Below are positions 38,464-60,216 of a stretch of 64,000 nucleotides of DNA, one piece after another. Position 1 is the first letter of the stretch. Each line of letters starts with the position of its first letter. A program made the position numbers and the translations under genes. The stretch is from Planctomycetota bacterium. Its GTDB lineage: Bacteria > Planctomycetota > GCA-002687715 > CAIWVZ01. The stretch is taken from NCBI GenBank assembly GCA_044222185.1, contig JBGANV010000004.1, forward strand, positions 472,608 through 536,607, in the 5' to 3' direction. The notes beneath the pieces were generated by a model. The model ran no database searches and was not told where the DNA came from. It saw nothing but the letters and a program-made list of their open reading frames with translations.

Positions 38464-38471
38464 CTTTCGCA

Positions 38472-44595: not shown

Positions 44596-45750
44596 TTAGA
44601 CGCCCGACGCGAGCCGCGACTTGGCGTCGTTGATCGTCGGAAGGACGACGTTCCGGAAGTAGGGGCGCTCACTCGTCGACCAGTTTTGATCGGCCCACGC
44701 GCTCGGATGCGAAAAGTGCGCCGCCAATGAGCGCGACGACCCGAGGTCGAGGACGGAAAGGTGATCGGTGAGAACGGTGGTGCTCTCCGCGATTGCTTCG
44801 AACGGCGCTTGGCCCTGGAGGATCACGATGGTCGGCTCCAGGATTCTCAGCGTCTCGAACAGGTGGCGCCGGCACTGACTCTTCATCACCCGTGAGGCAC
44901 GATCCTTCTTCCCGCCGGCCGGGCTCACCGCCGAGCAGAGAAGCGCGTTCACGAGAGCGAAGTAGTTGTAGAGATGGTTCGCCCAAGTCCTGTCACCTAT
45001 GAACTCGACACCGTCGTCGGTTGGAAGCCCGAAGACGGCGCGCAGGGCAAGCAGTGTGCCGCGCATGTGCGGCGTTCGCCTTTCAATGCCTTCGGCGTCT
45101 TTGCGCAGCATCGCCGTTCGTTTACCGAAGGACACGTGCGACGGTTTGTGGCCGTAGGACATCGCGACCACCACCACGCGCAGGTCGAGTCTGTCGATGC
45201 GGACGTCGTATCGCGAGCCCACATGGGAGAGCTGGCCCTCGTAGAAGCACATTCCTGCGACAGACTCGCGACATTGCAGCGCGCTCGTGCAGACGAACTG
45301 GGAACCGTCCATGACCTCTCGGGTCATGTAGTTCGAGAGCCGGGCGATCCGCTCTTGAGTGCGGGAGGTGTTCGTTGCGAAAGAGGGGTGGCCTACGGCG
45401 CTGGTCGGGAATGCGGCGCGCGGTGGCGGGGATGACAGTTGGCACGGCGGGGTCGCTTCAAACTCGGTGGAGGTGACTGCAGGTGCTCCTCCTTGAACTG
45501 ATCTGCCGACGACCCACAGCCGCGCGGGCGCGCCCGACGGGTCATCCGGGCCGATGCCGATGATGTCGCCGCCGTAGGGTTGCTTCCCTTCGCGCCTGCG
45601 GTTTCTGACTTCGAAAAAGAACTGGCGCACCCGGCCCTCGGGTCGTGCGTACTGCGGGAAATGCCGCGTAAGTTCGCGGGCGAGGTCCGCCTCATTCATC
45701 GGCGCCGGCGCACGCCGGACGAGATCTGCGATCGAAGCGTATTTCTCCAT
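44596..45750 (-). CDS. Uracil-DNA glycosylase superfamily protein with extra N-terminal domain
   Basis: 'LRVVVVA', 'NALLCS', 'CRRHLFETLRILEPTIVILQG', 'FSHPSA' match UDG-fold motifs. Confidence 0.7.
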   Translation of the reverse strand: MEKYASIADLVRRAPAPMNEADLARELTRHFPQYARPEGRVRQFFFEVRNRRREGKQPYGGDIIGIGPDDPSGAPARLWVVGRSVQGGAPAVTSTEFEATPPCQLSSPPPRAAFPTSAVGHPSFATNTSRTQERIARLSNYMTREVMDGSQFVCTSALQCRESVAGMCFYEGQLSHVGSRYDVRIDRLDLRVVVVAMSYGHKPSHVSFGKRTAMLRKDAEGIERRTPHMRGTLLALRAVFGLPTDDGVEFIGDRTWANHLYNYFALVNALLCSAVSPAGGKKDRASRVMKSQCRRHLFETLRILEPTIVILQGQAPFEAIAESTTVLTDHLSVLDLGSSRSLAAHFSHPSAWADQNWSTSERPYFRNVVLPTINDAKSRLASGV

Positions 45751-45898
45751 GAGCGTCCCGGTGATCGTACCGAAAGCGATGAACGGAGGTTCCTGGAGTT
45801 GCCGCCCCGCCCTGTACCGCATTCATCCGGCATCGCACTTCGTTCCCCGATCCGACTGTGCGGCAGGGAACTCAGACGCCACCGTCGAAGCAGTCCGC

Positions 45899-47194
45899 CT
45901 ACCCAGTGACTACGGCCTGGTCCGTCGCCGCGAACGTCGTACGTCGCGGCGCGATCAGTTCGGCGTAGGGCGCGAACGCCTCGTCGACGATATCCCGCAG
46001 CAGCGCATCCGACCTGCCCATGTAGTGCCGCTCGGCGACGGACATGTTCCTCCCGCCTGCGGAGTGGCGGAGCAGCCGGCTGATGACGGACACATCGTTC
46101 CCGGCCTCCGCGAGGATGGTGGCGTACGTCTTGCGCCACCGCTTCCACGTGAAGCCCGGCATTTGCTTCTGGATCGTACGCAGCATCCTCGCGAGCGAGT
46201 TTGGCGTGACCTGCCCGTCGCGGGACGCGGTCCAGATGAAGCCGGACTCGCGGCGCCGCTCGATGAAGAGCGGCCACGCCGCGAGCGGGATCGGCTGCCA
46301 CTGGCGCGCCTGCCGCACCTTGGCGCCGTGGGACTCGGCGACGAAGATGAACCTGTTCTCCCAGTTCACATGCTCCCAGCGCGCCCCGCGGATCTCGACG
46401 GGCCGCAGGCCCAGGACCATGAGCCCGACGCCGAGCCACTCCATGTAGCTCCACCCCTCGGGCCGGAACCGGACGGGCGCGCGCACGAACTCGAAGAACG
46501 CCTTCACCTCGTCGTCCGTGAACGGGTTCGGCTCCGGAAGCTCCTCCTTCGGCCTGCGATAGGTGAGACGCGGGTCCTGCTTCAGCCAGCCCTTCCGTGT
46601 CGCGAAGTGGAAGAGCATCGAGAGCTGCTTCATCTTCGAGCAGACGCCCGAGTTCCTGCAGCCGCGCGCGAAGAGCTTCTTCTCGTACCGCTTGAAGTCG
46701 AGGTCGGACACGAGGTCGACGGCCTTGTCGCCCGCCACGCCGGCGAACTCGCGGAAGATGGCGCCGAGCGACTTCCGATAGGCCGGCGCCTGCCGTTCGC
46801 CGTAGAGCTCGAAGAACGTGTCGATCGCCTTCGACAGCGTCGGCGGGCCCGCCTCGAACGTCTCGGGACGCGCGGATGCAAGGCTGCGGAGGAATGCGTC
46901 ACGCAGCTGACGGGCGAGGTGCTCCGCCGTCTTCGTCGGCTTCCGGACCGTCTCCTCGTTCGGGATCGCGATGCCCGCGTCGGCGTACTTCTCGGGCACG
47001 CAGTTCATGAACTTCCGCTCGTGCGTGAACGGGTCGCGGTACGGGAACCGCCACACGCGCCGCGCCGCGAACCACCAGACCTCGCCGGTAATCGGGCGGA
47101 GGGCGCGCGTGGGCTTCGCGAGGATCGTCGTGTCTTCCACGGTTGTGCTCACGTCGACAGTCACGCTCGTCTCGTCGATCGAGTCAAGGCTCAT
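45899..47194 (-). CDS. Tyrosine integrase
   Basis: 'GLRPVEI', 'KRWRKTYAT' (HxxR variant), 'LLRHS', 'RHY'; start uncertain. Confidence 0.88.
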   Translation of the reverse strand: MSLDSIDETSVTVDVSTTVEDTTILAKPTRALRPITGEVWWFAARRVWRFPYRDPFTHERKFMNCVPEKYADAGIAIPNEETVRKPTKTAEHLARQLRDAFLRSLASARPETFEAGPPTLSKAIDTFFELYGERQAPAYRKSLGAIFREFAGVAGDKAVDLVSDLDFKRYEKKLFARGCRNSGVCSKMKQLSMLFHFATRKGWLKQDPRLTYRRPKEELPEPNPFTDDEVKAFFEFVRAPVRFRPEGWSYMEWLGVGLMVLGLRPVEIRGARWEHVNWENRFIFVAESHGAKVRQARQWQPIPLAAWPLFIERRRESGFIWTASRDGQVTPNSLARMLRTIQKQMPGFTWKRWRKTYATILAEAGNDVSVISRLLRHSAGGRNMSVAERHYMGRSDALLRDIVDEAFAPYAELIAPRRTTFAATDQAVVTG

Positions 47195-47522
47195 CAGAAA
47201 GCTGCTGCGATGCGCCGGACCGACGCGCGCTCCAAGTTGCGATCTGAATGGTGGAGATGCTCAGTCCTACCGCGTTCACGAGCCCCTGGATGAACAGCGA
47301 TTGGCGCGATGCGGGGTCGTTGGCCTCGTTGCTCGTGAGGTACTCGACAAGAATTACCTGCGCATCGTCGTAGAGCCGAAACAGCGTCTTGCTGATGAGG
47401 CGAATGCGCTGCCGGTCACGCGTCTCGGCGCGGAGCCGCCGCTGGGCCGCGACGATCTTGTTCATCAACTCCATCCAAGCACGCGGTATCTCGTTGTCCT
47501 TCGCGAAGCTGACCATGTTCAT
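47184..47522 (-). CDS. Hypothetical protein
   Basis: GAGGAG RBS; overlaps both neighbours (translational coupling). Confidence 0.6.
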   Translation of the reverse strand: MNMVSFAKDNEIPRAWMELMNKIVAAQRRLRAETRDRQRIRLISKTLFRLYDDAQVILVEYLTSNEANDPASRQSLFIQGLVNAVGLSISTIQIATWSARRSGASQQLSDEP

Positions 47523-47812
47523 GTCTCCTCTTGGGTTGTTATTGATGCGTGCCGCTCCGGCTTCGTGCGGCGTCCCTGGCGATCAATTCGATTCGTGAGC
47601 TTCAGCGCGAGGACTCCGTCGCCGGCGTCATGGGGCAGTCGTCCCGTGATGAGACTTTCGACCATCGTGAGGCTCACGAGGTCGACGCCGCAGAGCTGTG
47701 CGAATTGAACCCGTCCCTCCGAAGCCCAGTTTCGGATCGTCTTCTCAGACCTGCCAACCATGGCGGCGAATTCCGCGACCGTGTAGTAGGTGTCGAGCTT
47801 GCCGACGATCAC
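47519..47812 (-). CDS. Excisionase-like helix-turn-helix protein
   Basis: 'YYTVAEFAAMVGRSEKTIRNWASEG'. Confidence 0.8.
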   Translation of the reverse strand: MIVGKLDTYYTVAEFAAMVGRSEKTIRNWASEGRVQFAQLCGVDLVSLTMVESLITGRLPHDAGDGVLALKLTNRIDRQGRRTKPERHASITTQEET

Positions 47813-48096
47813 GGCGTAGCCCTCGCATGCTCACGAAGGACGGCGGCCTCGATCCGCGCTTTGAGCGATGCATCGATCGGAATTGCGACGAGGTGCCGTG
47901 TCCCGTCTTGCGAGCGCCGCACGGGCCACGAGACGTAGCGGCGGCCGGTGATGGAGACACGGATTGCGATGCCGGAAATCATCCATCCGCCGACGATGAC
48001 GCTCGCGAATGAGAGCAAGCCCGCGCGTCGGAGCCCCTCGGACGCGAGCGTGATGCGCACGTCGTCGACGGTCGATGAGGTCGATGTGCGGTTCAT
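47809..48096 (-). CDS. SpoVG-like nucleic-acid-binding protein
   Basis: 'DVRI...LLSFASVIVGGWMISGIAI...YVSWP...PIDASLKARIEAAVL' pattern; GGAGG RBS. Confidence 0.7.
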   Translation of the reverse strand: MNRTSTSSTVDDVRITLASEGLRRAGLLSFASVIVGGWMISGIAIRVSITGRRYVSWPVRRSQDGTRHLVAIPIDASLKARIEAAVLREHARATP

Positions 48097-48218
48097 CGGA
48101 CCTCCGGGCCGGCTGTGCGGACGATCAGGACGTAGCCGCAATAGGCGCACCGCCACGTTCCGACGTCGAGCTCTCGGAGCGCCTCGCGGCAGACGGGGCA
48201 GACGAGGACGATGGTCAC
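48093..48218 (-). CDS. Small zinc-ribbon protein (41 aa)
   Basis: CPVC-x13-CAYC; 4-nt overlaps with both neighbours. Confidence 0.55.
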   Translation of the reverse strand: MTIVLVCPVCREALRELDVGTWRCAYCGYVLIVRTAGPEVR

Positions 48219-48655
48219 GATCCCCCTCCCGCAAACACGTGCTGCTGGGGCTTGGTCGCGCCTCCCGCCGTCAGCGGAGCGATACCCCACAAAAACTCGT
48301 AGAACCGCTCCATCTCCGGAACGGTCGGGTTGCGACTCCACAGATCGCAGCCGGTGATGCGATGGAACATGAACGCGAGGCTCGTGGCGTGGCGACGGCG
48401 ATATTCGGCCATCGTGTCGACGAGGTTGAAGCCGCGATGCGCACCGCCCGCTTCGTGCCTGTCGTCAAGCCACGGATCCCTCGCTGGGGCAGGCGCATGG
48501 AGGACCGCGCGGATTGCGATCGTGCGCGCTTGTAGCTGCGCGATCAGTTTGTCCGTGAGGACACCGTTCGCGTCTCGGAATGAGAGCCCCTCGGGCGAGT
48601 CCTCGATGCGGACGCCCCGGCCTGCGAGTTCCTGGACGATCCGGTGGGCGCTCAT
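48215..48655 (-). CDS. Primase-associated protein (TubC N-terminal-like domain)
   Basis: 'IVQELAGRGVRI...GLSFR...VLT...LIAQL' pattern; coupled to the primase stop. Confidence 0.6.
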   Translation of the reverse strand: MSAHRIVQELAGRGVRIEDSPEGLSFRDANGVLTDKLIAQLQARTIAIRAVLHAPAPARDPWLDDRHEAGGAHRGFNLVDTMAEYRRRHATSLAFMFHRITGCDLWSRNPTVPEMERFYEFLWGIAPLTAGGATKPQQHVFAGGGS

Positions 48656-51468
48656 GTTGCGCTCCCGTCGTCGACCGGTATGTCTTGAAGCAGCTCGTCG
48701 AAGCCCGTTGAGTCGCTCGATGTTGGCCGGGAAGTGTCGGTCGTTGGAGGCGCGGTGGGCGCGTCGTTCTCGGGAGGGCTCTCCGTGGAGATGATCGCGC
48801 TCGCGGGAATCACGACGACGTTGCGTCGAACCCCTTGAATCGTCTTCCGTACATCGCGACGGAGCGCGCCCCCGCGAGTGTCCTTCTCGATGATCAGTTG
48901 GGCATCGTCGAGACGCTGCTTGATCGTCCCCACAGAGAAGGGCAGGTCCTCGCCGGTCTCCTTGGCGAGCTTCTGGACGACAGCGATCGCCGCGGTGAAG
49001 TCCAGGTACAGCGCGTTGCCGTCGAGCCAGCCGACGAGCGTTGACGCCGGCGACATCGGCGTGGTCAGGCCGTCAGGCGACCATCCCCAGCGAGATGGAA
49101 TCGGCGGCGCCGAGCCGTCGACTCCCAACACGTAAGCCCGCCTCGTGGTAATCGCGGTGCCGAGCAGACCGACGAACCGGCGCGCGACGTCGTATTCAGC
49201 CACGTGTCCCGCCTGCTGTTCGCCGACCCCGACCAGTGCGTCACGGCAAGACTTCTGGATCTCAGTGGCGCGGTTCTGATCAATCGCGCGTGCTTTGATG
49301 GCGAATGCGAGGAAGCACTTCAACCCGATCAGGAGATCCGCGATCGCCTCGGGCGTTCGACAGTGCGCGCCGTCGGCTCGGAGTTCGTCGCGGAGACTCG
49401 CAAGCGCGTCGGGCAGCCGGGCGAGGAGCTTGCGCCGAAAGGACGCGAGCCACCTGATGAACCCCGACATCGCGCGCCCATACGCGCCAGAGGTCGCGTC
49501 CGCCTGGCACCCCTTGAGCTTCGTGGCATCGATCGCTCCCTTCGCGATTTCGACGATGATCATGCGCGCCCTGAGGGACTGTCCGCGCGGGATGTCCTCG
49601 CCGGTTGAGAGCAGGAGCGCGCGGGGCGGTTTCGGGGGGCGCAGCGACGTGTCGGCTTTCATGCGGGCGCGACCGCTCGCGTTCGCTTTCGCGCGAATCA
49701 GGCGTTCAGCCTCGCGGTGGATACGAACCCCATCAAGAGCGCTCGTTGGGACGAAGTCGTCGACGACGAGCAAGGCGTCCTTCGCGTAGAAGGCGGTGGC
49801 CTCGAGAGCGTTGCCGGTGGAGGTCCAGCTCGCGGGAAGGTGGTCGGCATCCATCTTCACCCCGAAGTGTCGTTGCATGAGCGCGGCGACCTCGGTCTTG
49901 AATCCTCCGGAGGGACCGAAGAGATGCACGGTCACCTCTGAAGTCGTCATCGCGGCCCTCCACGTTGCGCAGTAAATGGGGGCCGTGATCGAGGGCGGTG
50001 CGAGGTCGAGTAGGCGAAGTGACGCCTGGATGTCGCGCACCAGATCTTCCGGGTCCGGCGGATCGGGCAATGCGAAGTTTGCGAGCGTGCCCTCGAGGCG
50101 GACTTCGATGTTGGGAACCGGACCGCCGGAACCAATCGCGCCGTCGGCGTGGAGGTAGATGGACTCGCCTTCGTATTCACGCCAGCCCGTGTGGCGATAG
50201 ACGGTGCGCGGGACGACGCCGTCGGAGAGGAATTGAACCGCGGCGCGCGTGTGGTCCTTCGCACCGCTTCCCGCGGCGACGATGGCGAGCGGTCCCATGT
50301 GCGCCGTCGGCCAGTTCATGGTCGCGAAGTCAGTGGATGAGACGCGAAACGTGTGCGCGGATCCGTTGAGCGTCGCTTCGATCTGGAACTGGCGGACGGA
50401 TTCGACGCCGTCGTCCTCGGTCACGTCTGCGACGATCGTCGCCGCGAAGTTCGTGAGCTGAACGGGCTGCGTGCCCTCGCTGGTCGGCTTGTAGTAGAAG
50501 ATCCCGTGATCGGTCGCGCCGTAGGGGCAGAACTCCGTCGGTTGCCGCTTCACATCGGGCGCGACGAGCCTCATGAGATCGTCGAACGTCCCCCCGGTCG
50601 CGAAGAAGTCGTCGAGGCCGACCTTTTTGCCATCTGTACCCGAGGGCAAGTAGATCGGGTTGGCCTTTGCACCTCGGCTTCGCACGAAGGCGATCAGTCG
50701 GACCAGTGCGCCGCCGACCGCCTTCTTCTCCATCACATCGGAGTCGAAGACGACGAAGACGTTGCGGTTCTTGAGGACGATCGACTCGAAGCACGCGACC
50801 GCGGCCGATCCGCCCGCAGAGTTCTTCCCGCGCCAGTTCCACACGCCGAGGAGCGCGACGCAGCAGAGGCCGCGCGTGACTGCGGAGTCGGCCTTGCGGG
50901 AGCCCTCGGTGATGAAGAGATCGATCGCGGGATTGCCCAGCGACGCTCGGCTCCCTGGCGGAACGTCGATCACCATCCGCGCGCCCTTCGGCGTCTCGTA
51001 CTTCAGCAGCTTGCCACGCAGCTCGCGAGGGTCGTCGGGGCGGATCTGGTGGAGCGCGACGTTGCCGTGAACGTCGTGGATCGGGATCAACAACGCGGGG
51101 ACGCTGCACTGGACGAATCCGAAGCTGAGCGCACGAAGCTCGTCCTTGTCCGTCACCGAGCGGTAACCGCGCGCCGCAACGACCTCGGGCGAGATTGCGG
51201 ACGCGTCGAGGAGAGATTGATGCTGTGGGAGGAGTGACCGGGTGATCGCGACGGAATGCGCGTTCGCTTCGACGGCGACTCCCTCAGCACTGTGTGGCTC
51301 GACGTCGGCCGGCACTCCATCGGGTGCCTCGGCGCTGGAGACCGCGGCGTCCGGCGGCACGGCGTCGGTTGCGGGGATCGGGTCATTCGGCGCCGCCACG
51401 GTGGGAGGGATGTCGTCAGCTCGATCCGGGCCTTCTGCCTCGCCGTCGTGATCCTCGTCTGCGCTCAT
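48652..51468 (-). CDS. Toprim (DUF3854-like) primase fused to a P-loop helicase-like domain
   Basis: 'ITEGSRKAD', 'GVWNW', 'FDSD', 'GLDDF'; Walker A 'GPSGGFKT', Walker B 'LLVVDD'; ATGA overlap at the start. Confidence 0.85.
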   Translation of the reverse strand: MSADEDHDGEAEGPDRADDIPPTVAAPNDPIPATDAVPPDAAVSSAEAPDGVPADVEPHSAEGVAVEANAHSVAITRSLLPQHQSLLDASAISPEVVAARGYRSVTDKDELRALSFGFVQCSVPALLIPIHDVHGNVALHQIRPDDPRELRGKLLKYETPKGARMVIDVPPGSRASLGNPAIDLFITEGSRKADSAVTRGLCCVALLGVWNWRGKNSAGGSAAVACFESIVLKNRNVFVVFDSDVMEKKAVGGALVRLIAFVRSRGAKANPIYLPSGTDGKKVGLDDFFATGGTFDDLMRLVAPDVKRQPTEFCPYGATDHGIFYYKPTSEGTQPVQLTNFAATIVADVTEDDGVESVRQFQIEATLNGSAHTFRVSSTDFATMNWPTAHMGPLAIVAAGSGAKDHTRAAVQFLSDGVVPRTVYRHTGWREYEGESIYLHADGAIGSGGPVPNIEVRLEGTLANFALPDPPDPEDLVRDIQASLRLLDLAPPSITAPIYCATWRAAMTTSEVTVHLFGPSGGFKTEVAALMQRHFGVKMDADHLPASWTSTGNALEATAFYAKDALLVVDDFVPTSALDGVRIHREAERLIRAKANASGRARMKADTSLRPPKPPRALLLSTGEDIPRGQSLRARMIIVEIAKGAIDATKLKGCQADATSGAYGRAMSGFIRWLASFRRKLLARLPDALASLRDELRADGAHCRTPEAIADLLIGLKCFLAFAIKARAIDQNRATEIQKSCRDALVGVGEQQAGHVAEYDVARRFVGLLGTAITTRRAYVLGVDGSAPPIPSRWGWSPDGLTTPMSPASTLVGWLDGNALYLDFTAAIAVVQKLAKETGEDLPFSVGTIKQRLDDAQLIIEKDTRGGALRRDVRKTIQGVRRNVVVIPASAIISTESPPENDAPTAPPTTDTSRPTSSDSTGFDELLQDIPVDDGSAT

Positions 51469-51680
51469 GCCGTCCTCCGATCCGTGATGGACGGCCACGG
51501 CGGCGACGGAAGGTTCAGAAGCGCCGCGAGCTTCTCGACGTCGTCAGCGGTCCAGAGGAACTGTCCACCCGCGCGCATGGCGGGCTCGATCGCGCCGGAT
51601 CGGATCCGATTGCGGATCCGCGATTCGGGAAGAGGTGGGGTGAAGAGGCGTCGCACCTCGCCGGTCGTCATCAGTTTCAT
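51465..51680 (-). CDS. Small MerR/AlpA-like HTH protein
   Basis: AAGGA RBS; 'MTTGEV...RIRNRIRSGAIEP...FLWTADDVE'. Confidence 0.7.
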   Translation of the reverse strand: MKLMTTGEVRRLFTPPLPESRIRNRIRSGAIEPAMRAGGQFLWTADDVEKLAALLNLPSPPWPSITDRRTA

Positions 51681-51837
51681 GCCGTTCCTTTCCGCAGCTG
51701 TCAGTGCTGCGACGGCATGACCTTGCGACCGAAGTTTGTTTAGGTGCCAGAGAAAAAGAGAACGCCCGGAATCGAGCCATTCCTTCGAGGAAACGGGTCG
51801 ATCGGGCGTGTTGCGAGGATGGGTGTTTAGGACCTGT

Positions 51838-52845
51838 TCAGGTCCAGTTGCTCGGCTTCCCCGCGCGAGCCTGATTGCGTGTGACGGAAGCCTTCAGCAT
51901 CGGGAGCGTCGGCTCGACTTCGATTCTGATCCAGTACTTCTCGCCGTTCGCTGCGTATTCAGGTGGCGGTAGCTCACATCGATCCACGAGACCGTCGAGC
52001 GCCGTTGGCGACGCTGCTCCGCACAGCTCCTGCAGCTGCTTCCGCGTAATTATGTCGTCGCGCCCGGTGGTCTCCGTCAATGCGACCCGATTCGACCTGG
52101 CTGGCGGCACCGTTTCTCCCAGTGCGCTCGAGAGATCGCGCCGTAGCGCGCGGACGTGTTCATGAAGCGAGGCCAGCACGTTCGCAGTAGTCGGCGTGGG
52201 ATGCCGGGCAACGACGCTGCTAATCGCTGTTGCAGAGAGCCGCTCGGTCATCAGTCGTTCCACGATCGCTTGATCAACGTCGCGTTCGAAGCACGCGCGC
52301 GCGAGCGGCAGAACGACGTTTTGGTGAGATGGGGGGTTAGTCTGGAAGACGACGCACGGCAACTGGTGTGGAAGCACATGAAGCGCATCCCTGAGTCGGT
52401 TCGTGCTCCGGGCGATCAGGGTGTCCGGTCCCCCGACATCCTCGCACGCCTTCTGAAACTCCGCGATCAACGCGGGTAAACCGGCGCCGAAGGAGGCCTC
52501 GATGCGGGGGCGGAACTCATCGCCGCAGAGGCGCACGTCATCGACAACGAAGACGTCCATCGCGTCCTTGGTCAGCTGGTCGAGCGCGTCGCCGAGCCGT
52601 CGGAAGAAGCGCCGGGCGTCTTCGCTCGACGGGGAGAAGAGAACCAGCGATCGAACATACGGACGAGTGAGTTCGACGGCACGCCCTGCCACGGCTGCGG
52701 ATCTTCCGCCCCCCACGTTCACCGGGGATGCGGCCGGAGCGATCATGGACACGACACGTTCGACGCGCGTCGTCGCCGCAAACCCCTTCTGCTGGCCGGG
52801 CACGATTGGACCCGTCCGCCCGTCCTGTCCGTACTTGAATGCCAT
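51838..52845 (-). CDS. Hypothetical protein with C-terminal AlpA-like HTH
   Basis: C-terminal 'IITRKQLQELCG...LPPP...YW'; GAGGGA RBS. Confidence 0.6.
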   Translation of the reverse strand: MAFKYGQDGRTGPIVPGQQKGFAATTRVERVVSMIAPAASPVNVGGGRSAAVAGRAVELTRPYVRSLVLFSPSSEDARRFFRRLGDALDQLTKDAMDVFVVDDVRLCGDEFRPRIEASFGAGLPALIAEFQKACEDVGGPDTLIARSTNRLRDALHVLPHQLPCVVFQTNPPSHQNVVLPLARACFERDVDQAIVERLMTERLSATAISSVVARHPTPTTANVLASLHEHVRALRRDLSSALGETVPPARSNRVALTETTGRDDIITRKQLQELCGAASPTALDGLVDRCELPPPEYAANGEKYWIRIEVEPTLPMLKASVTRNQARAGKPSNWT

Positions 52846-53042
52846 ATCGATCCCTCATGGAGGAGTCGCCGCTCCCAGCCACGGCGGATTCCGTCACAGC
52901 CTCCATGGTAGTGAGCCGGGGGGACGGCGGACGAGCGGCTGAGGAGGGCGGGCGATGTCCCGTCCGCAGCGTGCGACCGTTCGCCACGGGAGGGTCCGAC
53001 GACCGGGAATTCGTCGCTCTGGGAATCCCGGGTCGCGCTCGC

Positions 53043-53352
53043 GGGCCATTGGGCCATGGGCCACGGCCCACTTCGGAGAGAGAGCCGGCTGCGGAACGAC
53101 CCCAGATTTCACGGAGGCAGGCGGCCGGGAGCGATCCTGGAGACGTGTGAGAGCGTCGTCGACTACGTCCAAGACGAGGAAGAGGCGGGCCTGATCCAAG
53201 GAACTCTCAAAAACCGATTCTGCGTGATTGACCGGGACCACGCTTCCAACTTCCATGCTCTGAATGGGTTCCAACCGGTCGATGCGAATCTGAGGTTCTA
53301 TACGCCGGGGCCTCTCTCTCCCTATGAGAAATGGCCCATGGCCCAATGGCCC
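53043..53352. repeat. Inverted repeats flanking a 268-bp segment
   Basis: GGGCCATTGGGCCATGGGCCA (53043-53063) and its exact reverse complement (53332-53352); the match extends inward imperfectly. Confidence 0.9.
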
Positions 53353-53358
53353 AGACCG

Positions 53359-54210
53359 TTACCCCTCCAACGCCTGTCGGAGCCGGGTCTCGCAGACGCC
53401 CGTGTAAATCGTCGTGCTCTGGATGGAGGCGTGGTGGAGCGCGGTCTGGACGAGCCGGAGGTCGGAGGTCCGTTCCAGGAGCCGGATGGCGAATCCGTGG
53501 CGGAGGGCGTGGGGTCCAACGTCCACCCCGATTCCAGCAACCCGAAGCCAGTTGCGGAACCGGCGTTGGACTTGGCGGACTGTGACGCGACGGCCGTGGC
53601 GGTCGGTGAACAGGGCTCCGTCTGTCTTGGGGCCGATGAACGCCAGTAAGCGGTCGAGCACCGCTGTCGGGAGAAGGTGTCGCGCGGGTCGCCCCGCCTT
53701 GCTCTGCCGCAGGGTCGCGACCCTCTGTTCCCGATCGATGTCGGCCACGTCGAGCGCGACGGTCGCGCCGATTCGGGCCCCCGTGCCGGACAGGAACGTG
53801 AACAGCGTGTGGTCGCGTTGGGCTTCGAACCCTTGGTTTGCTGCGATCGTCCCGAGCAGGCGGTCCCGGTCGTCGTCGCGAAGCCACCGTGGCGGCGGAC
53901 TCGCACAGAGGGCGCGTCGGACGATGCGGGCGGGGTCGGTTGGGATGATTCCCGCTTCGTGCAGGTAGCGGAACACGCCTCGAACCGAGGTGCGGATCGC
54001 GTTCATGGTGACCGGCCACCTCGAGGCGCGAGTCTCGGGCGCGGCAAGAAACGCTGCGACATCCTCGTGCGTGATTGACTCGACGCTGCGGTCGCCGGCC
54101 CACCCGATGAGCGTCATGACGTGCCGCCGATACTGGGAGATCGTTCCCGGGGCGCGACCGTCCGCCTGCAACTGCGCGAGGAATCGATCGAGGGCGTCTT
54201 GGAGGTTCAT
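53359..54210 (-). CDS. XerC/D-like tyrosine recombinase
   Basis: 'TGARIG', 'PHALRHGFA', 'LHHASIQSTTIY'; 283 aa with core-binding and catalytic domains. Confidence 0.92.
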   Translation of the reverse strand: MNLQDALDRFLAQLQADGRAPGTISQYRRHVMTLIGWAGDRSVESITHEDVAAFLAAPETRASRWPVTMNAIRTSVRGVFRYLHEAGIIPTDPARIVRRALCASPPPRWLRDDDRDRLLGTIAANQGFEAQRDHTLFTFLSGTGARIGATVALDVADIDREQRVATLRQSKAGRPARHLLPTAVLDRLLAFIGPKTDGALFTDRHGRRVTVRQVQRRFRNWLRVAGIGVDVGPHALRHGFAIRLLERTSDLRLVQTALHHASIQSTTIYTGVCETRLRQALEG

Positions 54211-54267
54211 CTTGGAGGTGCCCTGGTTAGAACGAGCGGGCCAAGTTGACCCGCTCCGGAGGATGGA

Positions 54268-54753
54268 TCAGCCCGCCGTCGCGTAGGGGACGGAGGTGAT
54301 CACTCCTGACGCTTTCGCCCAGCTCAGCGCGAGCCTCAGAGCGCGACGCGTCTTCAGGATCGTCGGCTGCGCTTTCGGCTTCCCCTTCTTCGTCTTCGTG
54401 ACGAGGTCGCTCGCTTCGAACGCGGCGATGTCGTCAGGGGTGATCAAACCCGCGACCCTCGAAGCCTCGAAGTGCCTCATGGCAAGTTCCAAGTCACCCC
54501 CGTAGCTCGCGACCGTGGACGCGGTCTTCCCGCGCTCGCGCATGCTGTTCAACCATCCTTCAGCGATCGTCTTCAAGGTGGCAGGGCCGCCACTCGGAGT
54601 GGGTAAGTCTGGCACAGTGCCGAACGCGGCTTCCGGCGCATGGTTCTCCGACGGCGGCGTCGTGCCCTTCGTCTTCTTCCGTGCGGTCGCCACACGGTTC
54701 TTCATCCAGTTTGCGGAGGGTTCGGCCGCGGCCTTCTTGCTCTTCGTCGTCAT
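54268..54753 (-). CDS. Stand-alone integrase core-binding (SAM-like) domain protein
   Basis: 'KTASTVASYGGDL...ITPDDIAAF...PTILKTRRALRLALSWA...GVI'; ends before any catalytic domain. Confidence 0.7.
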   Translation of the reverse strand: MTTKSKKAAAEPSANWMKNRVATARKKTKGTTPPSENHAPEAAFGTVPDLPTPSGGPATLKTIAEGWLNSMRERGKTASTVASYGGDLELAMRHFEASRVAGLITPDDIAAFEASDLVTKTKKGKPKAQPTILKTRRALRLALSWAKASGVITSVPYATAG

Positions 54754-54959
54754 GAGGGGCTCCGTTCTTCGACGACAGCGGCGCGGCCCGGGATCACAAG
54801 GACGATTGTTCCGTCCGGGGTTCGCCCAGGAATCGGAACGCCGTTCAAGCCGCTCGTGAGCGCCTCGAACTCGTCGACGTCCCAGCAGTCCACGATCTGG
54901 TTCCACAACGTGGGATCGGGCGTGAACGTCTCGGGTATCTCGATCAACCGCAGCGTCAT
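54750..54959 (-). CDS. Hypothetical small protein (69 aa)
   Basis: GGAG RBS; ATGA overlap with the downstream gene. Confidence 0.55.
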   Translation of the reverse strand: MTLRLIEIPETFTPDPTLWNQIVDCWDVDEFEALTSGLNGVPIPGRTPDGTIVLVIPGRAAVVEERSPS

Positions 54960-55072
54960 CGTCGCGCTCCATTCACGCCGGCACCATCGCCTGCGCGTGC
55001 GACACATGGAGCCTCGTTTCGCCTCCGATTGGAAGGCAATTCCGCTCGTCTTCCGAGCGGCGGAACCGCGCT

Positions 55073-56353
55073 TCAAAGGATGTAGACACCCGCCTTCTGC
55101 CGAGGCCGAAAATGCCATGCGGCGAGCGCCAGTCCGATCACGCAGTCGTCGTGCATTCCGGACGGCGCGCCAGTCTTGATGTTTCCCGTTTCGCCGACTG
55201 TGAACTCGAATGCTTCGATCTCGTCGATGCCGACCGGCCAGACGATCGCAGACGGCAAGACGATCTCCCGACGTTCGATCAGCAGCACCAGGTTGTCGAT
55301 CAGCGCCGCCTTCGATCGCGACGTGAATGGATATGCGTCCACGCGAACGCCCGCGGCCCGCAGCGTCTCGAACACCGGCTCGCCGGCCCCCGTCGTGTCC
55401 ACCGTAAGCCGGGCGTTGTTGTACCTGCCCGCGATGCCCTTGATCCGCGCGACCTGCGTCGACCAGTCCTCACGGTGGAATCGCTCCGCGTGGACGACGC
55501 GATTCTCCATGTCCATGATCACGAGAACGGTGAAGTCCTCCACCTTCGCGAGGTCCAATCCGCCCACATAGCGAACGTCGGGCCTTGGATCCTCGAAGGT
55601 CCCTGTCGCGCACTCACGCACGCCGCGAAATACCTGGCCCGCGCCCTCCAGGAACTCGCCGCCGAACTCCTGGCGGAAGACGCGCTCCGGAAGCCGATCC
55701 CGCTCCTGTTCGATGAGGACCGCGTTGAGCAGCGGGTTCGTCCAGGACGGCAGGTTCCACGACTGGTAGTCCGGATCGCTGCCGGGCTGCCCTCGGCGCC
55801 ACTGATCGAAGAACCATCCCTTGCCGCGCGGCGTCGAAATCATGAGCGCCCAGCCGTGCTTATCGATCAGGCGTTGGGAGAGGTGCGATTCCCAGATGTG
55901 AGGCCGAAGCCGAGCGGCTTCGTCGATCACGAGCCAGTCCAATCCCTCGCCGAGGAGCGAGACCGGATTGTCCGCGCTCTTGCCACGAATCTCCGACAAC
56001 CCACCACCGAGGTTGCGAAGCACGAGACGACGATCGTGCTCTTTCAGCGTGACGATCCGGTGTCGGAGGTGTTCGGCGGTCAACACCACGATCTCGCGGA
56101 ACACGCGGTCGGCGAGGTCGTACGTCGGCGCGCATACCCATCCGCAGGATCTTCCCGCCGGCATCATCGCTGCTGCGATGCCTTCAGCGGCTGCCGCAAG
56201 AGTCTTTCCCCAACGCACACCGCAGGCGACGATCCGTCGGCGCGCCGTCGAACGGTGGATCTGCACCTGTCCCGCGTGCGGCGCGTAGCCGAGGGACTCG
56301 AACAGTGCCCGCTTGCTGACGCGGAGATCAACTGCCGGTTGCGCTCCAGTCAT
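55073..56353 (-). CDS. Phage terminase large subunit
   Basis: 'GVRWGKT', 'LVIDEAA', 'ISTPRG', 'FRQEF', nuclease motifs 'GLDLA...DFT' and 'HDDCV'. Confidence 0.9.
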   Translation of the reverse strand: MTGAQPAVDLRVSKRALFESLGYAPHAGQVQIHRSTARRRIVACGVRWGKTLAAAAEGIAAAMMPAGRSCGWVCAPTYDLADRVFREIVVLTAEHLRHRIVTLKEHDRRLVLRNLGGGLSEIRGKSADNPVSLLGEGLDWLVIDEAARLRPHIWESHLSQRLIDKHGWALMISTPRGKGWFFDQWRRGQPGSDPDYQSWNLPSWTNPLLNAVLIEQERDRLPERVFRQEFGGEFLEGAGQVFRGVRECATGTFEDPRPDVRYVGGLDLAKVEDFTVLVIMDMENRVVHAERFHREDWSTQVARIKGIAGRYNNARLTVDTTGAGEPVFETLRAAGVRVDAYPFTSRSKAALIDNLVLLIERREIVLPSAIVWPVGIDEIEAFEFTVGETGNIKTGAPSGMHDDCVIGLALAAWHFRPRQKAGVYIL

Positions 56354-56789
56354 CCTTCTCTCCGGGCTTGAGCATCAGTGTCTCGTACTCGCGCTTGATG
56401 ATCGTTGCGACGTCGAGCACAGAACGGTCGGAGGGCTCGCCGCGGATCACCCGCTCCTGATCGACCGCAGCGGCCAACGCTTTCGCGGCAGCCGTGGCGT
56501 TGTCCAGCGGCATGTTCTTCAACGCCTCGATGGCTCGGTTCTGGATCAGGTGGACGAGGCGCAAGTGCCGATCGTTCATCTCCTCGAGCGACTCAATCGC
56601 CTTCTTCTGTGCTTGCTCGCGGGCAGCACGCTCCTGCTGGGCGACCCGGTTCTGCCAGTTCTCCTTCTTCGCCCGCGTACAGACAGAGCGCTTGCACACG
56701 CCGAACTTCTCGGCAATGGCGCCGTAGGATCGGGCCGGGCCGAGTGCGAGGTAGGTCTCGAACGCGTCGTGGGGGAGCTTGCGAGTCAT
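56328..56789 (-). CDS. Putative terminase small subunit
   Basis: N-terminal HTH 'RSYGAIAEKFGV...W' plus helical region; directly upstream of and overlapping TerL. Confidence 0.7.
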   Translation of the reverse strand: MTRKLPHDAFETYLALGPARSYGAIAEKFGVCKRSVCTRAKKENWQNRVAQQERAAREQAQKKAIESLEEMNDRHLRLVHLIQNRAIEALKNMPLDNATAAAKALAAAVDQERVIRGEPSDRSVLDVATIIKREYETLMLKPGEKDDWSATGS

Positions 56790-56918
56790 TTCACGAGAAA
56801 TGTCACCGCGCACACGAGCATCACGTACGCGATGAAAAGGAACTGAATCCACGGGGCAGAGTTCTCCGCGAAGTCCTCGCGGATCCTCCGACTCTGGGTA
56901 CGGACGAACCCGATGAGG

Positions 56919-58262
56919 TCACGCATGGTTGCTTCTCCGTTCGTCTGCACTCGCTGCGAACGTCCGCCCCGAGCCTTCGAGCGTGGCCTCGCGACCGGTC
57001 GCTGTCTGCCAGCGCGTCACGATGACGTCGCAGTACGCCTCGTCGAGTTCCATCAGGAACGCGCGGCGGTTCGTCTGCTCTGCGGCCATGAGCGTCGAGC
57101 CGGATCCTCCGAAGAGGTCGAGGACGTTCTGGTTGATCAGCGATGAATAACCGATCGCGCGAGCCGCGAGTTCGACAGGCTTCTCCGTCAGGTGGACCAT
57201 TTTCACGGGCGCGACCTTCTGGATCTCCCAGACGTCGGGGATGTTGTTTGGGCCGAAGAAGACGTGCGCGGCGCCTTCCTTCCAGCCGTAGAAGCACCAC
57301 TCGTGGTTGCCCATGAAGTCCTTGCGCGTGAGGACGGGGTGGCCCTTCACCCAGATCACGGCCTGCGAGAAGTAGAGGCCGTGGCGCTTCAGGACGGGCG
57401 GGTAGTTCCCGCAGTTCGCGTAGCCACCCCAGATGTAGAACCCGCCGCCGGGCACGAGGACCCGTGCGATGTTGCCGAACCAGGCGTCGAGGAGCGCGTC
57501 GAATGCTTCATCGCTCACGAAGTCATTGGCGAGAGGGCGATCCTTCGCGCGCATCTTCGGCGAAGCCCGACGCGTGCCACCCTCCGCGTCGCTCCGCTGG
57601 TGTTGCATCGTTCCCTGGAACGAGGAGAGGCCGGCCGCGATCGCGTTGTTCGATCGGGGCTCCACCTTCACGTTGTACGGCGGGTCGGTGGTTACGAGGT
57701 GGACGAGCGCGCCGGCGAGGAGCCGATCGAGATCCTGGGCGCTGCCGGAATCGCCGCACATGAGTCGATGCCGCCCCAGGGTCCACAGATCGCCGCGCTT
57801 CGTCACGGGGTTGTCGGGCGGGAGCGGAGGTTCGTCTTCGGCGACATCGCCAACATCCGAGAGCAACTCGTCCACGTCCGCGTCGCTGAATCCCACACCA
57901 TCCATCGCGCCGGCATCACGCAGCTCGGAGAGGATCCTCGCGAGCACCTCGTCGTCCCACGTTGCGGTCTCGGCCGACCTGTTCAACGCGATGCCGAGCG
58001 CCGTCGCCGTCATGTCGTCTACGTCCAGCTCGACCACATCGGCCTCGCTCCAGCCGAGCGCCTTCATGGCCGTGAGACGCCCGTGCCCGCCGATGATGCG
58101 TCCGGTCTTCGCCTGGACCACGAGCGGTTCGGCTTGTCCGAAACGACGAAGCGACGCCGTGATCGCATCGAGGTTCTCGTCGGGGTGGCGACGCGCGTTC
58201 GCGGGGTCGGGGACGAGGGACGAGAGTGGACGACGCCTGATCGTCAGCGAGTCTCCGGACAT
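56919..58262 (-). CDS. ParB-like domain + DNA methyltransferase (phage type)
   Basis: 'PDPANAR', 'IIGGHGRL'; 'TDPPYN', 'HLTEKP', 'LDLFGGSGST'; GGAGG RBS. Confidence 0.9.
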   Translation of the reverse strand: MSGDSLTIRRRPLSSLVPDPANARRHPDENLDAITASLRRFGQAEPLVVQAKTGRIIGGHGRLTAMKALGWSEADVVELDVDDMTATALGIALNRSAETATWDDEVLARILSELRDAGAMDGVGFSDADVDELLSDVGDVAEDEPPLPPDNPVTKRGDLWTLGRHRLMCGDSGSAQDLDRLLAGALVHLVTTDPPYNVKVEPRSNNAIAAGLSSFQGTMQHQRSDAEGGTRRASPKMRAKDRPLANDFVSDEAFDALLDAWFGNIARVLVPGGGFYIWGGYANCGNYPPVLKRHGLYFSQAVIWVKGHPVLTRKDFMGNHEWCFYGWKEGAAHVFFGPNNIPDVWEIQKVAPVKMVHLTEKPVELAARAIGYSSLINQNVLDLFGGSGSTLMAAEQTNRRAFLMELDEAYCDVIVTRWQTATGREATLEGSGRTFAASADERRSNHA

Positions 58263-58391: not shown

Positions 58392-58719
58392 TGCACCGCC
58401 GCCGTGCGGAACGCGCCCCTCTGGCAGGCGCGGTGCAAATGGCCGCGACGGTGCCGAGCGCGGGGGAGCCGCGGAGACTCCGGGAATTCCGCGCTGGATC
58501 GGCTGTTCCCTCCACGGCGGCGACTGCACCGCGCGCGTCGTCGGGACGTGGTCGTCGTGTCCCCTCGATCCGCGCATGTCACGGTGGCCCGCGAAGATGG
58601 GAGCGTGCGTGCCCGTCGACACGATCTCCGTAGGGGTGATGTTCCGGTGCAATTGGTGCAGGTCGCACACTGCAGGATGTGCGACATCCGAACTTGCACC
58701 GGACGATGCAATCGGTGCA
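58392..58719. repeat. Iteron-like array of TGCACC/GGTGCA
   Basis: Copies at 58392, 58432, 58525, 58646, 58655, 58695 and 58714 in both orientations, in non-coding DNA. Confidence 0.65.
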
Positions 58720-58728
58720 GTTGGCGGA

Positions 58729-59622
58729 TCAGTCCTCCGCGAAGTAATCGCTGTCGAGCTTCTTCACCGCATAGATCTGCCGGTCCACGACGCCCACGCC
58801 GTGGTCGATCATGAGGTCGGCGAGTTGCTCCCCGTCAAGGAGGACGATCCGTTTCTCGATTTGCTCGGAGTACTTCCTGGCCTCGGCGCTGAATGTGGAT
58901 GTCGTGATCAAAACTCCGCGCCTCGATCGCACGCCGTCGAGGCTGCCGGCGAACGTCTGCACGACGGGCCTGCCGACGACTCCACCCCAACGTTTCGCTT
59001 GGATGTAGACCGTGTCGAGACCGAGCTTGTCCTCGCGGATCAGTCCGTCGATTCCGCCGTCACCGCTTCGCCCGAGGACACGTCCTGCGTTGCGGGCGTC
59101 GCCGCCGTACCCCATCGCCACCAGGACGTCGATCACGATCTTCTCGAAGAACGCGGGTGTACCAGCCTTGATGGTCTCGATGATGGTCTGGGCGAGGTCA
59201 CGTCGGAGGACTTGGTATGCCGCCTCAATCGTCTCTTCGGGCGTCTCGACTTCCTTCGCCGTGGTGACCACCGACGGTTCAGCCTCGCGGAACGCGCGGT
59301 ACTCCGCGTACTGCTGCAGGACGCTCATGTCGATTCGTTCTGGCTTGGACGCGAGGAGGGCATGACCACGCGGCGTGATTCGAACGACTCCGCGCGACGG
59401 CTTTTCGACCAGGCGGGCCTCCTGCATGTGTTTGATTGCCCACCCGACTCGATTGTCAGCGCGGCGTTGCCTGCCGCTCGGCAGTCTTTCTTCCAAGTCG
59501 GAGTCTGTGAGACGGAGATTCGCGGAGAGTTGCACGACGATTTCGGGCGCTCGCCGGTCCTTGTCGTCAGAGAGCAGGCGCAGCGTCGGAAGCATGAGGG
59601 ACTGGAAGTCGGGAATCGCCAT
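58729..59622 (-). CDS. mrr: Mrr family restriction endonuclease
   Basis: 'MAIPDFQSLMLP', 'NRVGWA', 'DGGIDG', 'YIQAKRW', 'GVLITTS'. Confidence 0.93.
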   Translation of the reverse strand: MAIPDFQSLMLPTLRLLSDDKDRRAPEIVVQLSANLRLTDSDLEERLPSGRQRRADNRVGWAIKHMQEARLVEKPSRGVVRITPRGHALLASKPERIDMSVLQQYAEYRAFREAEPSVVTTAKEVETPEETIEAAYQVLRRDLAQTIIETIKAGTPAFFEKIVIDVLVAMGYGGDARNAGRVLGRSGDGGIDGLIREDKLGLDTVYIQAKRWGGVVGRPVVQTFAGSLDGVRSRRGVLITTSTFSAEARKYSEQIEKRIVLLDGEQLADLMIDHGVGVVDRQIYAVKKLDSDYFAED

Positions 59623-60216
59623 GAGGGGGCAGAGTATAGCCCAACCCGCGCACGCAGATGGGGCGCGCGTGTGCGCACGGCGGCGCGCTACATCGACTCC
59701 GAGCCTGATCTCACACAAGCGACACGCACGCGACGGAAGGTAGACCGGGGGTTGCAAGAGAGCAAGAAATGAGCCCCCTGCCGACCGCGTCCGCGCGGTC
59801 CTGAAGACGAGGTCGGCGCGCCAGGAACGGGCGCCGGCGTCAGGCGTGCCTTCTACGCGGCGGACGGGACGGTGGCGTTGCTCCGGCCGAGGCGACCCGA
59901 TGAGCTGTGTGGGGCAGCCGTCATGCCGGGAGATGGTCGTCGTCTGCTCTCACGGCGCCGAGGTCTGGCGAGATGGTCAGGTGGCGCCTGACCGGTGGCC
60001 TTCGCCGGCAGATGACTGGTCATTCTCGGGCGGCGCCGCTAACGGATCGTGCCACGCAGTACCGCCGGCTCGTGTCGCAGAGCTTGGACTGCGAGGACGT
60101 TGGCGGAGCAACGAACCACACGCCCTGGAGGCCGCGTGCATTCAGCACGCGGGAATTCGCTCGCGCGGGCCCGGGCGTCGCAGCGCCCGCGGGTAGGTGA
60201 CATACGGCGATTCGAT

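Follow-up and report, generated by a model that had tools for sequence, protein, structure and literature searches.

Why would a small integrative element carry a complete phage packaging motor when no gene for a head or a tail can be recognized beside it? The question is raised by a 64,000-nucleotide stretch of DNA from a Planctomycetota bacterium (contig JBGANV010000004.1, positions 472,608 to 536,607), here called the window, in which an unbroken run of minus-strand genes extends over 12.4 kb from position 58262 to 45899. The run starts with a ParB-like nuclease joined to a methyltransferase (ParB-MTase) and the small (TerS) and large (TerL) terminase subunits, and it ends with a tyrosine integrase. 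It represents a recurrent, selected architecture rather than a one-off remnant. Its anatomy suggests a satellite resembling the phage-inducible chromosomal islands (PICIs) that would bring its own complete terminase and take procapsids, tails, and lysis from some helper phage; we give this reading slightly better than even odds, about 55%.

The packaging block

Window genes were called by third-position G+C (GC3) and the listing of open reading frames (ORFs), and they were annotated with Pfam, PHROGs, NCBIfam, and PADLOC. The co-oriented run from ParB-MTase to the integrase had first been described from the letters alone (the sequence-only reading), and Pfam, PHROGs, and NCBIfam place it exactly there. 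Its first five genes form the packaging block and its recombinase.

56919-58262, minus strand: ParB-like nuclease domain plus N6/N4 methyltransferase (ParB-MTase), 447 aa, first gene of the block; PF01555 1.1e-25, ParB_N 7e-4
56328-56852, minus strand: TerS, 174 aa; phrog_6299 1.6e-15; 26-nt overlap with the start of TerL
55073-56353, minus strand: TerL, 426 aa, ATPase and RNaseH-like nuclease domains; phrog_2 1.5e-42, Terminase_6C 2.5e-9
54268-54972, minus strand: core-binding (SAM-like) domain-only protein (CB), a tyrosine-recombinase paralogue, ORF of 234 aa; phrog_1, N-terminal part, 3.9e-7
53359-54210, minus strand: Xer-like tyrosine recombinase (Xer), 283 aa; PF00589 1.9e-27, SAM-like N domain

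ParB-MTase also matches phrog_498 (4.9e-120) and phrog_620 (1.6e-42), and its relatives are frequent among phages (708 records). A small ORF that had been drawn behind TerL (54750-55118) found no support. Pfam and PHROGs returned no major capsid, portal, protease, head-tail adaptor, or connector match for the window proteins, and the window copy has too little coding capacity to accommodate a portal and a capsid protein. No structural gene follows TerL in the window, as had been claimed earlier.

Recurrence and anatomy of the family

A pattern derived from an alignment of 27 TerLs was scanned against one genome per species and gave 148 matches, 80 of which were confirmed. This TerL-anchored scan yielded at least 77 loci in at least 53 assemblies, with two to five loci in each of at least 13 assemblies; single loci are cited by number (L001 and so on). 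Sixty-seven of the 77 are labeled Planctomycetota or a planctomycete lineage, including the cultured Rohdeia mirabilis Pla163, whose full copy (L021) occupies roughly 1.481-1.492 Mb of NZ_CP036290.1, and the other 10 are labeled Dehalococcoidia, Rickettsiales (three), Gemmatimonadales, Sandaracinaceae, Coatesbacteria, and "uncultured bacterium" (three). Among the candidates scored, at least 1475 proteins are TerL relatives at E ≤ 1e-10, the best 120 being 64-100% identical, and a TerL search of the representative library descended a smooth identity ladder from 51% to 36%, with the nearest outgroups at 38-51%.

The anatomy of the family was assembled from gene maps, Pfam matches of family representatives, and local profile classes; in many of the 77 loci a short contig breaks off within the element. 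The common order is ParB-MTase, TerS, and TerL, then optionally CB and Xer, a variable "slot" protein, a replication module, a SpoVG-like protein, and an integrase. By tblastn, ParB-MTase relatives lie directly upstream of TerS in 62 of the 77 loci, TerS relatives immediately precede TerL in 70, Xer relatives are present in 44, and the C-terminal 100 residues of CB are conserved just before Xer in 28. A TerL ORF was delimited in 72 loci, and a full-size tyrosine recombinase starts within 2.5 kb in 22 of the 54 that have at least 2.5 kb of downstream sequence. Where at least 8 kb is available downstream of TerL (38 loci), a tyrosine recombinase lies within 8 kb in 25, a same-strand replicase in 21, SpoVG in 14, and a terminal recombinase in 18. 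Measured from the TerL start, the terminal recombinase ends at a median distance of 9.7 kb. With another 1.9 kb or so for ParB-MTase and TerS, an element comes to roughly 11-12 kb, similar to the 12.4 kb of the window copy. The family consists of integrative elements of Planctomycetota, roughly 11-12.5 kb in size.

A decaying prophage that kept its terminase by chance is one alternative, and single copies do show damage: the L049 TerL is frameshifted, and the serine recombinase of L057 is fragmentary. The family as a whole contradicts it. The gene order that the sequence-only reading had proposed to search for is found again in dozens of species-level genomes, the block stays constant while the replication and integration modules around it are exchanged, and the earlier argument from intact ORFs is strengthened by low dN/dS values and invariant catalytic residues. 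We give a chance remnant next to no credence.

Conservation of the terminase

The closest characterized TerLs are those of the Thermus phages P23-45, P74-26, and G20c (about 34-35% identity over >90% of the length), and no INPHARED phage has a TerL above 36% identity. The ATPase domain aligns to the solved P74-26 domain (4zni, 4e-36) and the nuclease domain to the G20c and P74-26 structures 5m1f and 5tge (about 7e-22 to 1e-22). Walker A K50, Walker B D144-E145, and the nuclease residues D267, D319, and D402-D403 are invariant in the 27-sequence alignment. The Thermus enzymes have the same ATPase and nuclease catalytic residues; the genomes of those phages measure 75-86 kb. The dN/dS ratios calculated by the Nei-Gojobori method are 0.04-0.13 for TerL in seven pairs, paralogous copies within one genome included, 0.08-0.24 for ParB-MTase with one outlier at 0.71, and 0.10-0.39 for Xer. 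With its catalytic residues invariant and under purifying selection, the TerL of the window lineage looks functional. The Acidithiobacillus phage AcaML1 encodes a ParB-MTase relative (37.5%) upstream of TerS, TerL, and the portal, so the first three genes of the element stand in phage order, whereas the portal that follows TerL in AcaML1 is replaced in the element by CB and the Xer-like recombinase.

Other features of TerL are less conventional. An invariant SLLGEG motif (residues 132-137) puts its second leucine at the P74-26 position that is arginine in 4zni and alanine in 4znj; we take the arginine mutated in 4znj to be the trans-acting arginine finger. An invariant arginine comes after Walker B in the element TerLs. 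Eight loci from six assemblies (L060, L062-L067, L069; for example L065:9992-10972) encode a nuclease-less TerL of 305-350 aa, composed of the ATPase domain and a CxxC...CxxC zinc-ribbon-like tail. Pfam matched only ATPase-domain models in all eight, and a tblastn search in all frames of these loci did not find the nuclease part. The short TerLs are monophyletic within the element clade, and they have intact ORFs and a dN/dS of 0.13. Two tandem full-length TerL genes occur in six loci (L001-L004, L047, L051); those of L002 share about 75% DNA identity (pairwise dN/dS 0.18), and both are individually conserved across the copies of that genome. TerL is by far more conserved (56-71% in full-length scan matches) than the neighboring genes. 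Two ParB-MTases are interrupted: L008 (7531-9723) has an intein-like insert with Hint_2 and Intein_splicing Pfam matches, and L074 (2-2287) encodes a 761-aa form with a foreign, intein-like middle segment.

These observations could mean that the terminase does not fill capsids with the element at all, and that it acts as an anti-phage decoy that jams packaging motors or as a translocase or processing machine for a capsid-independent route. A protein held far above its neighbors in conservation, duplicated in tandem, without its nuclease and under purifying selection in one sub-lineage, and carrying leucine at the arginine-finger position of its closest solved relative would fit such a role, as would the position of the window element among defense genes and that of the L051 copy beside a NERD-kinase and a PglX-like methyltransferase. 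Yet the main lineage keeps every nuclease and ATPase catalytic residue, TerS and ParB-MTase accompany TerL in phage order, and the elements possess every excision and replication gene that one would expect if they are themselves transferred. PADLOC, moreover, has no model that matches TerS, TerL, CB, or Xer, and ParB-MTase matches generic methyltransferase models by its methyltransferase domain only. We regard a non-packaging role as distinctly improbable.

The search for structural genes

Neighboring proteins throughout the family were scanned with PHROGs. The downstream set contained one protein of at least 100 aa per local family starting within 9 kb of TerL (248 proteins, of which 241 were scanned at E ≤ 1e-5; the remaining 7 had non-structural Pfam matches). 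The upstream set contained 203 proteins of at least 120 aa located within 8 kb upstream of the packaging block in the 47 loci with usable flanks (E ≤ 1e-6). No portal, major head protein, protease, scaffold, or connector was found among the 241 downstream proteins, and no portal, capsid, protease, connector, or tail match among the 203 upstream proteins. Only two downstream proteins fell into a structural category, an opposite-strand FtsK-like ATPase in L016 ("terminase" PHROG) and a metallo-beta-lactamase-fold protein in L055 ("tail protein" PHROG) that carries the Lactamase_B domain in Pfam. The upstream counterparts were limited to a secretin in L052 and a member of the same beta-lactamase-fold family in L056. 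A Coatesbacteria contig with a 35% identical TerL (L071) served as the control, and its TerL gene is directly followed by matches to a portal (2.3e-54) and a major head protein (3.7e-23). This outlier is the only locus with a portal; the check for portal or capsid genes after TerL in homologous loci, which had been named as a way to overturn the earlier idea, was otherwise negative. No unannotated protein family of at least 280 aa recurs across the loci.

The beta-lactamase-fold proteins (448-490 aa) of L055 (4909-6990) and L056 (5010-7226) are each encoded with a 244-aa partner, on opposite strands relative to TerL. This two-gene unit, inside one element and upstream of another, is probably mobile cargo.

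The same scans bear on the possibility that the run is part of a complete virus, with structural genes too divergent to be recognized or located elsewhere as in a split prophage, perhaps past position 64000. An open, unannotated ORF (63014-64000) is cut by the window end, 5.7 kb upstream of ParB-MTase, but the window genes in between are restriction and methylation genes and the upstream regions of 47 loci are free of portal, capsid, and tail matches. Many element proteins are orphans, and to our knowledge almost no phages of Planctomycetota are known, which makes the sensitivity of the profiles uncertain; against this, the loci have no recurring unannotated family of proteins of at least 280 aa. 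Finally, the attachment (att) repeats of L057 lie 12.3 kb apart, and tRNA genes adjoin ParB-MTase in L051 and L055. We hold a hidden complete virus to be very unlikely. A functional temperate phage was rejected on the missing portal, capsid, and tail matches together with the 12.3 kb enclosed by the L057 repeats.

Ends of the element and flanking genes

The L057 copy provides the clearest ends. The 54-bp 3' end of a tRNA-Met gene (7749-7802) is repeated with one mismatch at 20062-20115, and the repeat encloses 12.3 kb that start 380 bp upstream of ParB-MTase. This element is partly degraded and contains a serine recombinase fragment and a BNR-repeat cargo gene. At the ParB-MTase end, L051 and L055 have an adjoining tRNA gene; in L023 and L008 such a gene adjoins the integrase end. 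A search of 22 other loci for exact repeats of at least 13 nt gave nothing convincing, and L057 is the only clear case. In the window, neither a direct-repeat search of 38000-64000 nor searches with the 3' end of tRNA-Pro at up to three mismatches found anything, exact repeats of at least 12 nt are absent between the flanks, and local alignments of the flanks were no better than shuffles. The flanks contain the following features.

58644-58702: nested palindrome, 27 nt beyond the stop codon of Mrr, on the upstream side of ParB-MTase at a distance of about 380 nt; probable end of the Mrr transcription unit
58729-59757: type IV Mrr, defense gene (PADLOC)
60217-60684: methyl-directed restriction endonuclease-like gene, type II-like (PADLOC)
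61662-62648: methyltransferase beyond the ParB-MTase end (PADLOC)
44596-45822, minus strand: 408-aa orphan, 76 bp downstream of the integrase, no library match; its membership in the element is uncertain
40060-44266: McrBC-like PDC-M26A/B pair on the integrase side (PADLOC)
38389-38464: tRNA-Pro, followed by its own hairpin and T run at 38473-38512

The tRNA-Pro gene is probably not the att site because its own hairpin and T run follow it. On the other side, the position of the palindrome just past the Mrr stop codon suggests that Mrr is a separate unit and that the element ends between Mrr and ParB-MTase (58262). The palindrome is not followed by a T run and was not listed by the terminator scan. 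The promoter and terminator scan gave nothing above shuffles, and the Rfam scan of 38000-64000 found only the tRNA. The G+C content is 61-70% across the whole window, with no compositional break at the region.

PADLOC confirms the defense genes that had been noticed on both flanks, with Mrr, the endonuclease-like gene, and the methyltransferase on one side and PDC-M26A/B on the other. Methylation-dependent restriction genes (the McrBC-like pair, Mrr, and the methyl-directed enzyme) and a methyltransferase therefore surround an element that itself encodes a methyltransferase. A defense-like neighborhood was also seen in L051 (13447-21055), where the two TerLs are directly followed by genes for a 1445-aa NERD and protein kinase fusion and a 1088-aa Eco57I-type methyltransferase with DUF7008; these look like Pgl/BREX-type defense genes. 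Assignment of the 408-aa orphan to the UDG superfamily was a weak lead (atlas score 0.89), and the protein has no relatives in the loci. Positions 1-38000 of the window are host backbone rich in respiratory genes, among them Rieske/cytochrome b, a cytochrome c oxidase cluster, UbiD, and large multihaem cytochromes; an SNF2/SWIM helicase is also encoded there, and there is no phage-like content.

The replication and integration backbone

The remainder of the element, from the end of Xer to the integrase, is as follows.

53043-53063 and 53332-53352: perfect 21-nt inverted repeat that brackets 268 bp between Xer and the next gene
51838-52845, minus strand: orphan slot protein, 335 aa, with a visible C-terminal helix-turn-helix (HTH)-like motif
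51544-51780, minus strand: small ORF, 78 aa, unconfirmed and without library matches; the GC3 rule preferred an alternative ORF at 51465-51680
48652-51498, minus strand: primase-helicase, 948 aa, DUF3854 (Toprim-like) and DUF927; PF12965 8.1e-15, PF06048 1.4e-4
48215-48655, minus strand: 146-aa protein without library matches; jackhmmer match to the C-terminus of the L010 Prim-Pol protein
47809-48234, minus strand: SpoVG-like protein, 141 aa; PF04026 8.3e-6, below the cut-off
47519-47812, minus strand: HTH_17/MerR/excisionase-like protein, 97 aa; HTH_17 6.1e-6, 26.8 bits against a cut-off of 27
47184-47522, minus strand: hypothetical protein, 112 aa; GC3 of 0.79 fits the coding frame, no Pfam, PHROG, or NCBIfam match
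45899-47194, minus strand: tyrosine integrase, 431 aa, last gene in the conserved order; phrog_1 1e-31, PF00589 2.4e-8

The labels "TubC-N-like", "Zn ribbon", and "MerR-like HTH" that had been attached to the small ORFs (48215-48655, 51544-51780) were not recovered by Pfam, PHROGs, or NCBIfam. The primase-helicase matches phrog_1139 and phrog_16213, both DNA primase. Its relatives occur in three loci (L031, L038, L075) and different replicases occupy the position elsewhere; the family as a whole uses DUF3987 plus Toprim, Prim-Pol, D5_N/DUF5906, DUF3854/DUF927, and PolA (family A polymerase) proteins. The match of the 146-aa protein to the C-terminus of the 1001-aa L010 Prim-Pol protein (9e-28, jackhmmer) indicates that it corresponds to the C-terminal portion of replicases in other elements. 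SpoVG-like proteins were detected in 11 loci by tblastn and as 26 ORFs by jackhmmer, located after the replicase, and a profile of 21 members matches the SpoVG structures 2i9x, 2i9z, and 2ia9 at 7e-7 to 6e-6. The 97-aa HTH protein also matches phrog_2474 (MerR-like), phrog_575 (Cox-like excisionase), and phrog_66 (excisionase). The terminal recombinase, identified in 22 loci, is of the tyrosine type in 12 and a large serine recombinase in 10; the serine-type loci end with DUF2924 and the large serine recombinase.

The slot between Xer and the replicase is hypervariable. Across 44 loci its proteins fall into 35 unrelated groups; they are 200-890 aa long, mostly 300-420 aa, and a few have HTH_3 plus an M78 peptidase or C-terminal winged-helix motifs. 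The 335-aa window protein had no Pfam, PHROG, NCBIfam, PADLOC, or atlas match, and a homologue search of 5.8 billion proteins returned only the protein itself; its single-sequence AF2 model (pLDDT 34) was not used. The master repressors of the SaPIs (Stl) are divergent, and by analogy the slot protein could be a helper-sensing regulator.

The second recombinase and the inverted arms

XerC and XerD models score the Xer-like recombinase at 133-136 bits against cut-offs of about 330, far too low for an XerC/XerD orthologue. Its catalytic residues are visible in the sequence (R146, H244-x-x-R247, H270, Y279). The CB protein is linked to Xer N-termini by jackhmmer, and its start is most likely Met74 at 54753 (161 aa) because the first 73 residues read like non-coding sequence. 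The inverted repeats that had been seen beside Xer were located as the perfect 21-nt arms listed above, and each arm consists of three GGGCCA units. Among 38 other Xer loci examined, comparable arms, made of tandem octamers, follow Xer only in L012 and L043; in these two loci and in the window they are two or three tandem 6-9-bp units that bracket about 110-340 bp downstream of Xer. An invertible switch at the arms was rejected because 2 of 38 loci do not make a family feature. The arms could be iterons, operators, or recombination sites. A precedent for the gene linkage is phage P1, a complete phage of the 90-kb class with Cre/lox near pac. The element resembles P1 in having a site-specific tyrosine recombinase linked to packaging genes, and it differs in having no defined lox-like site; the 21-nt arms of the window are not conserved across loci.

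An exchangeable block

Two loci of one assembly, L046 (7656-13536) and L068 (509-6390), share 5.9 kb of DNA at 98.8% identity. The common segment begins about 570 bp upstream of ParB-MTase and ends sharply 65 bp past the Xer stop codon; all four coding sequences are identical, whereas the adjoining replicases and integrases are unrelated. No repeats flank the shared block in either locus. Another genome has five copies in which the block is 91-93% identical; its left edge is sharp and lies about 630 bp ahead of ParB-MTase. In L039, L066, and L069 the Xer gene precedes ParB-MTase, and in L008, L017, and L053 it is found still further upstream. These data support in part the earlier suggestion of two fused elements: the packaging genes and Xer are exchanged together as a unit, yet this block is habitually joined to the replicase-SpoVG-integrase backbone.

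A composite structure was considered, in which ParB-MTase, TerS, TerL, CB, and Xer would be a self-contained cassette borne by its own Xer, entering or swapping between replicative integrative islands and making them packageable. The backbones would be tycheposon- or PICI-like, and the window would hold two elements, each with its own recombinase. The sharing of a nearly identical block by unrelated backbones in L046 and L068 and the sharp left edge in the five-copy genome speak for a cassette; mosaic exchange through homologous recombination would look no different, and the lack of flanking repeats in L046 and L068 counts against a cassette that moves independently. Xer on the other side of the block resembles circular permutation, but Xer is absent from some loci. 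The block stands without the usual backbone in 9 of the 38 long loci; in most long loci, however, the slot protein, replicase, SpoVG, and integrase follow it. On balance we consider this composite structure unlikely. A fuller version, in which the block would move autonomously by its recombinase among unrelated Planctomycetota replicative islands and make them transducible, with a zinc ribbon in place of the TerL nuclease in one sub-lineage, is quite doubtful. If it were true, motor and cutter would be separate proteins in that sub-lineage, the ParB-like nuclease being a candidate for the cutter; alternatively, the motor would have a non-classical role, for instance interfering with infecting phages or serving a capsid-independent route. 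The choice between cassette and element concerns structure and is compatible with a satellite.

Comparison with known satellites

P4-like satellites encode the capsid-size and decoration proteins Sid, Psu, and Delta, and both P4 and PLE borrow the large terminase of the helper. The window proteins have no head-related PHROG or Pfam match besides terminase; P4-specific profiles were not run. The best plasmid match of TerL (34%) is a 16.7-kb haloarchaeal plasmid that has head genes after TerL and is not analogous.

Other satellites are compared here through excerpts of the cited papers. PICIs are defined there by an integrase, a regulator, a primase-replicase, an optional capsid-morphogenesis gene, and TerS, and in cf-PICIs TerL is added together with capsid, adaptor, and connector genes (PMC10085698). 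The Streptomyces satellites MulchRoom and MiniFlayer have both terminase subunits plus portal, capsid protein, scaffold, and adaptor (PMC10690885). VEIMEs carry TerS or a capsid gene (PMC9618062), as do PICI-like tycheposons (10.1101/2020.12.28.424599), and EPIPs carry TerS (PMC12822802). Tycheposons and VEIMEs, which are marine integrative satellites, exchange modules, integrate at tRNA genes, and use tyrosine or serine recombinases (10.1101/2020.12.28.424599; PMC9618062).

The element resembles PICIs and SaPIs in its terminal integrase, putative excisionase or regulator, primase-replicase, and packaging gene at the far end, in its size of about 10-12 kb, in the occurrence of several copies per genome, and in the location of some copies at tRNA genes. 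The integrase at one end (phrog_1 1e-31) and the primase-replicase module are both in place, and the candidates for a regulation module of the AlpA/MerR/Stl type are the 97-aa HTH_17/MerR-like protein, just short of its cut-off, and the orphan slot protein. Unlike a PICI, in which TerS or Rpp is the only packaging gene, it has a full TerL besides TerS, a phage-type ParB-MTase, and a second, Xer-like recombinase; it has no capsid-morphogenesis gene, its host phylum is Planctomycetota, and its helper dependence is putative. It shares both terminase subunits with cf-PICIs and MulchRoom/MiniFlayer, whereas the portal, major capsid protein, protease/scaffold, and head-tail adaptors that the excerpts attribute to them were not found in the window or in 444 neighboring proteins. 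With tycheposons and VEIMEs it shares the exchange of replication and integration modules and, in its relatives, the tRNA association; the TerS-TerL pair sets it apart from these elements as they are described in the excerpts. We found no description in the literature of an element with TerS and TerL without capsid genes, and none for Planctomycetota; the supplementary tables of large catalogues were outside the scope of this search.

Discussion

From the observed gene content, recurrence, catalytic residues, purifying selection, lack of recognizable structural genes, and L057 att repeat, we infer all steps of the following life cycle for a PICI-like satellite with its own terminase. A helper phage would trigger excision by the integrase and the Xis-like protein, and the replicase of the element would copy it. 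TerS would recognize a pac site on the element DNA, and TerL would dock on the helper portal and fill helper procapsids with element DNA, probably packaging concatemers because the element is small. ParB-MTase may modify, and possibly nick, the DNA before packaging. After injection, the Xer-like recombinase may resolve or circularize redundant DNA, by analogy with P1 Cre/lox beside pac, and the integrase would insert the circle.

Several results weigh against this satellite. The nuclease-less TerL sub-lineage is not easily squared with TerL cutting of the classical headful or cos type, and an invariant leucine occupies the position of the P74-26 arginine finger. Neither a helper phage nor a virion, nor an excised or circular form, was seen. 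No helper candidate emerges, since a TerL above 36% identity is absent from INPHARED. The limits of the window copy are not fixed, because an att repeat was found neither there nor in the 22 other loci searched, and none of the 27 whole-contig loci is a circular contig. Downstream of the packaging block, 9 of the 38 long-flank loci have neither a same-strand replicase nor SpoVG nor a tyrosine recombinase. The hypervariable 300-420-aa slot proteins are uncharacterized, and the sensitivity of the PHROG profiles for planctomycete phage structural proteins was gauged by the single control L071.

The satellites described in the excerpts either borrow the large terminase of the helper (PICI, VEIME, tycheposon, EPIP) or encode an entire head module themselves (cf-PICI, MiniFlayer/MulchRoom). 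If the satellite reading is correct, bringing the complete motor only, TerS plus TerL, would be a third satellite strategy, and it would mean that a foreign TerL can dock on the portal of a helper. The nuclease-less TerL and the terminase-linked Xer are leads on the cutting, packaging, and re-circularization of small elements, and TerL, being so highly conserved, could be used as a marker gene in the search for these elements and their helpers. The family would then be a first handle on phage-satellite biology in Planctomycetota.

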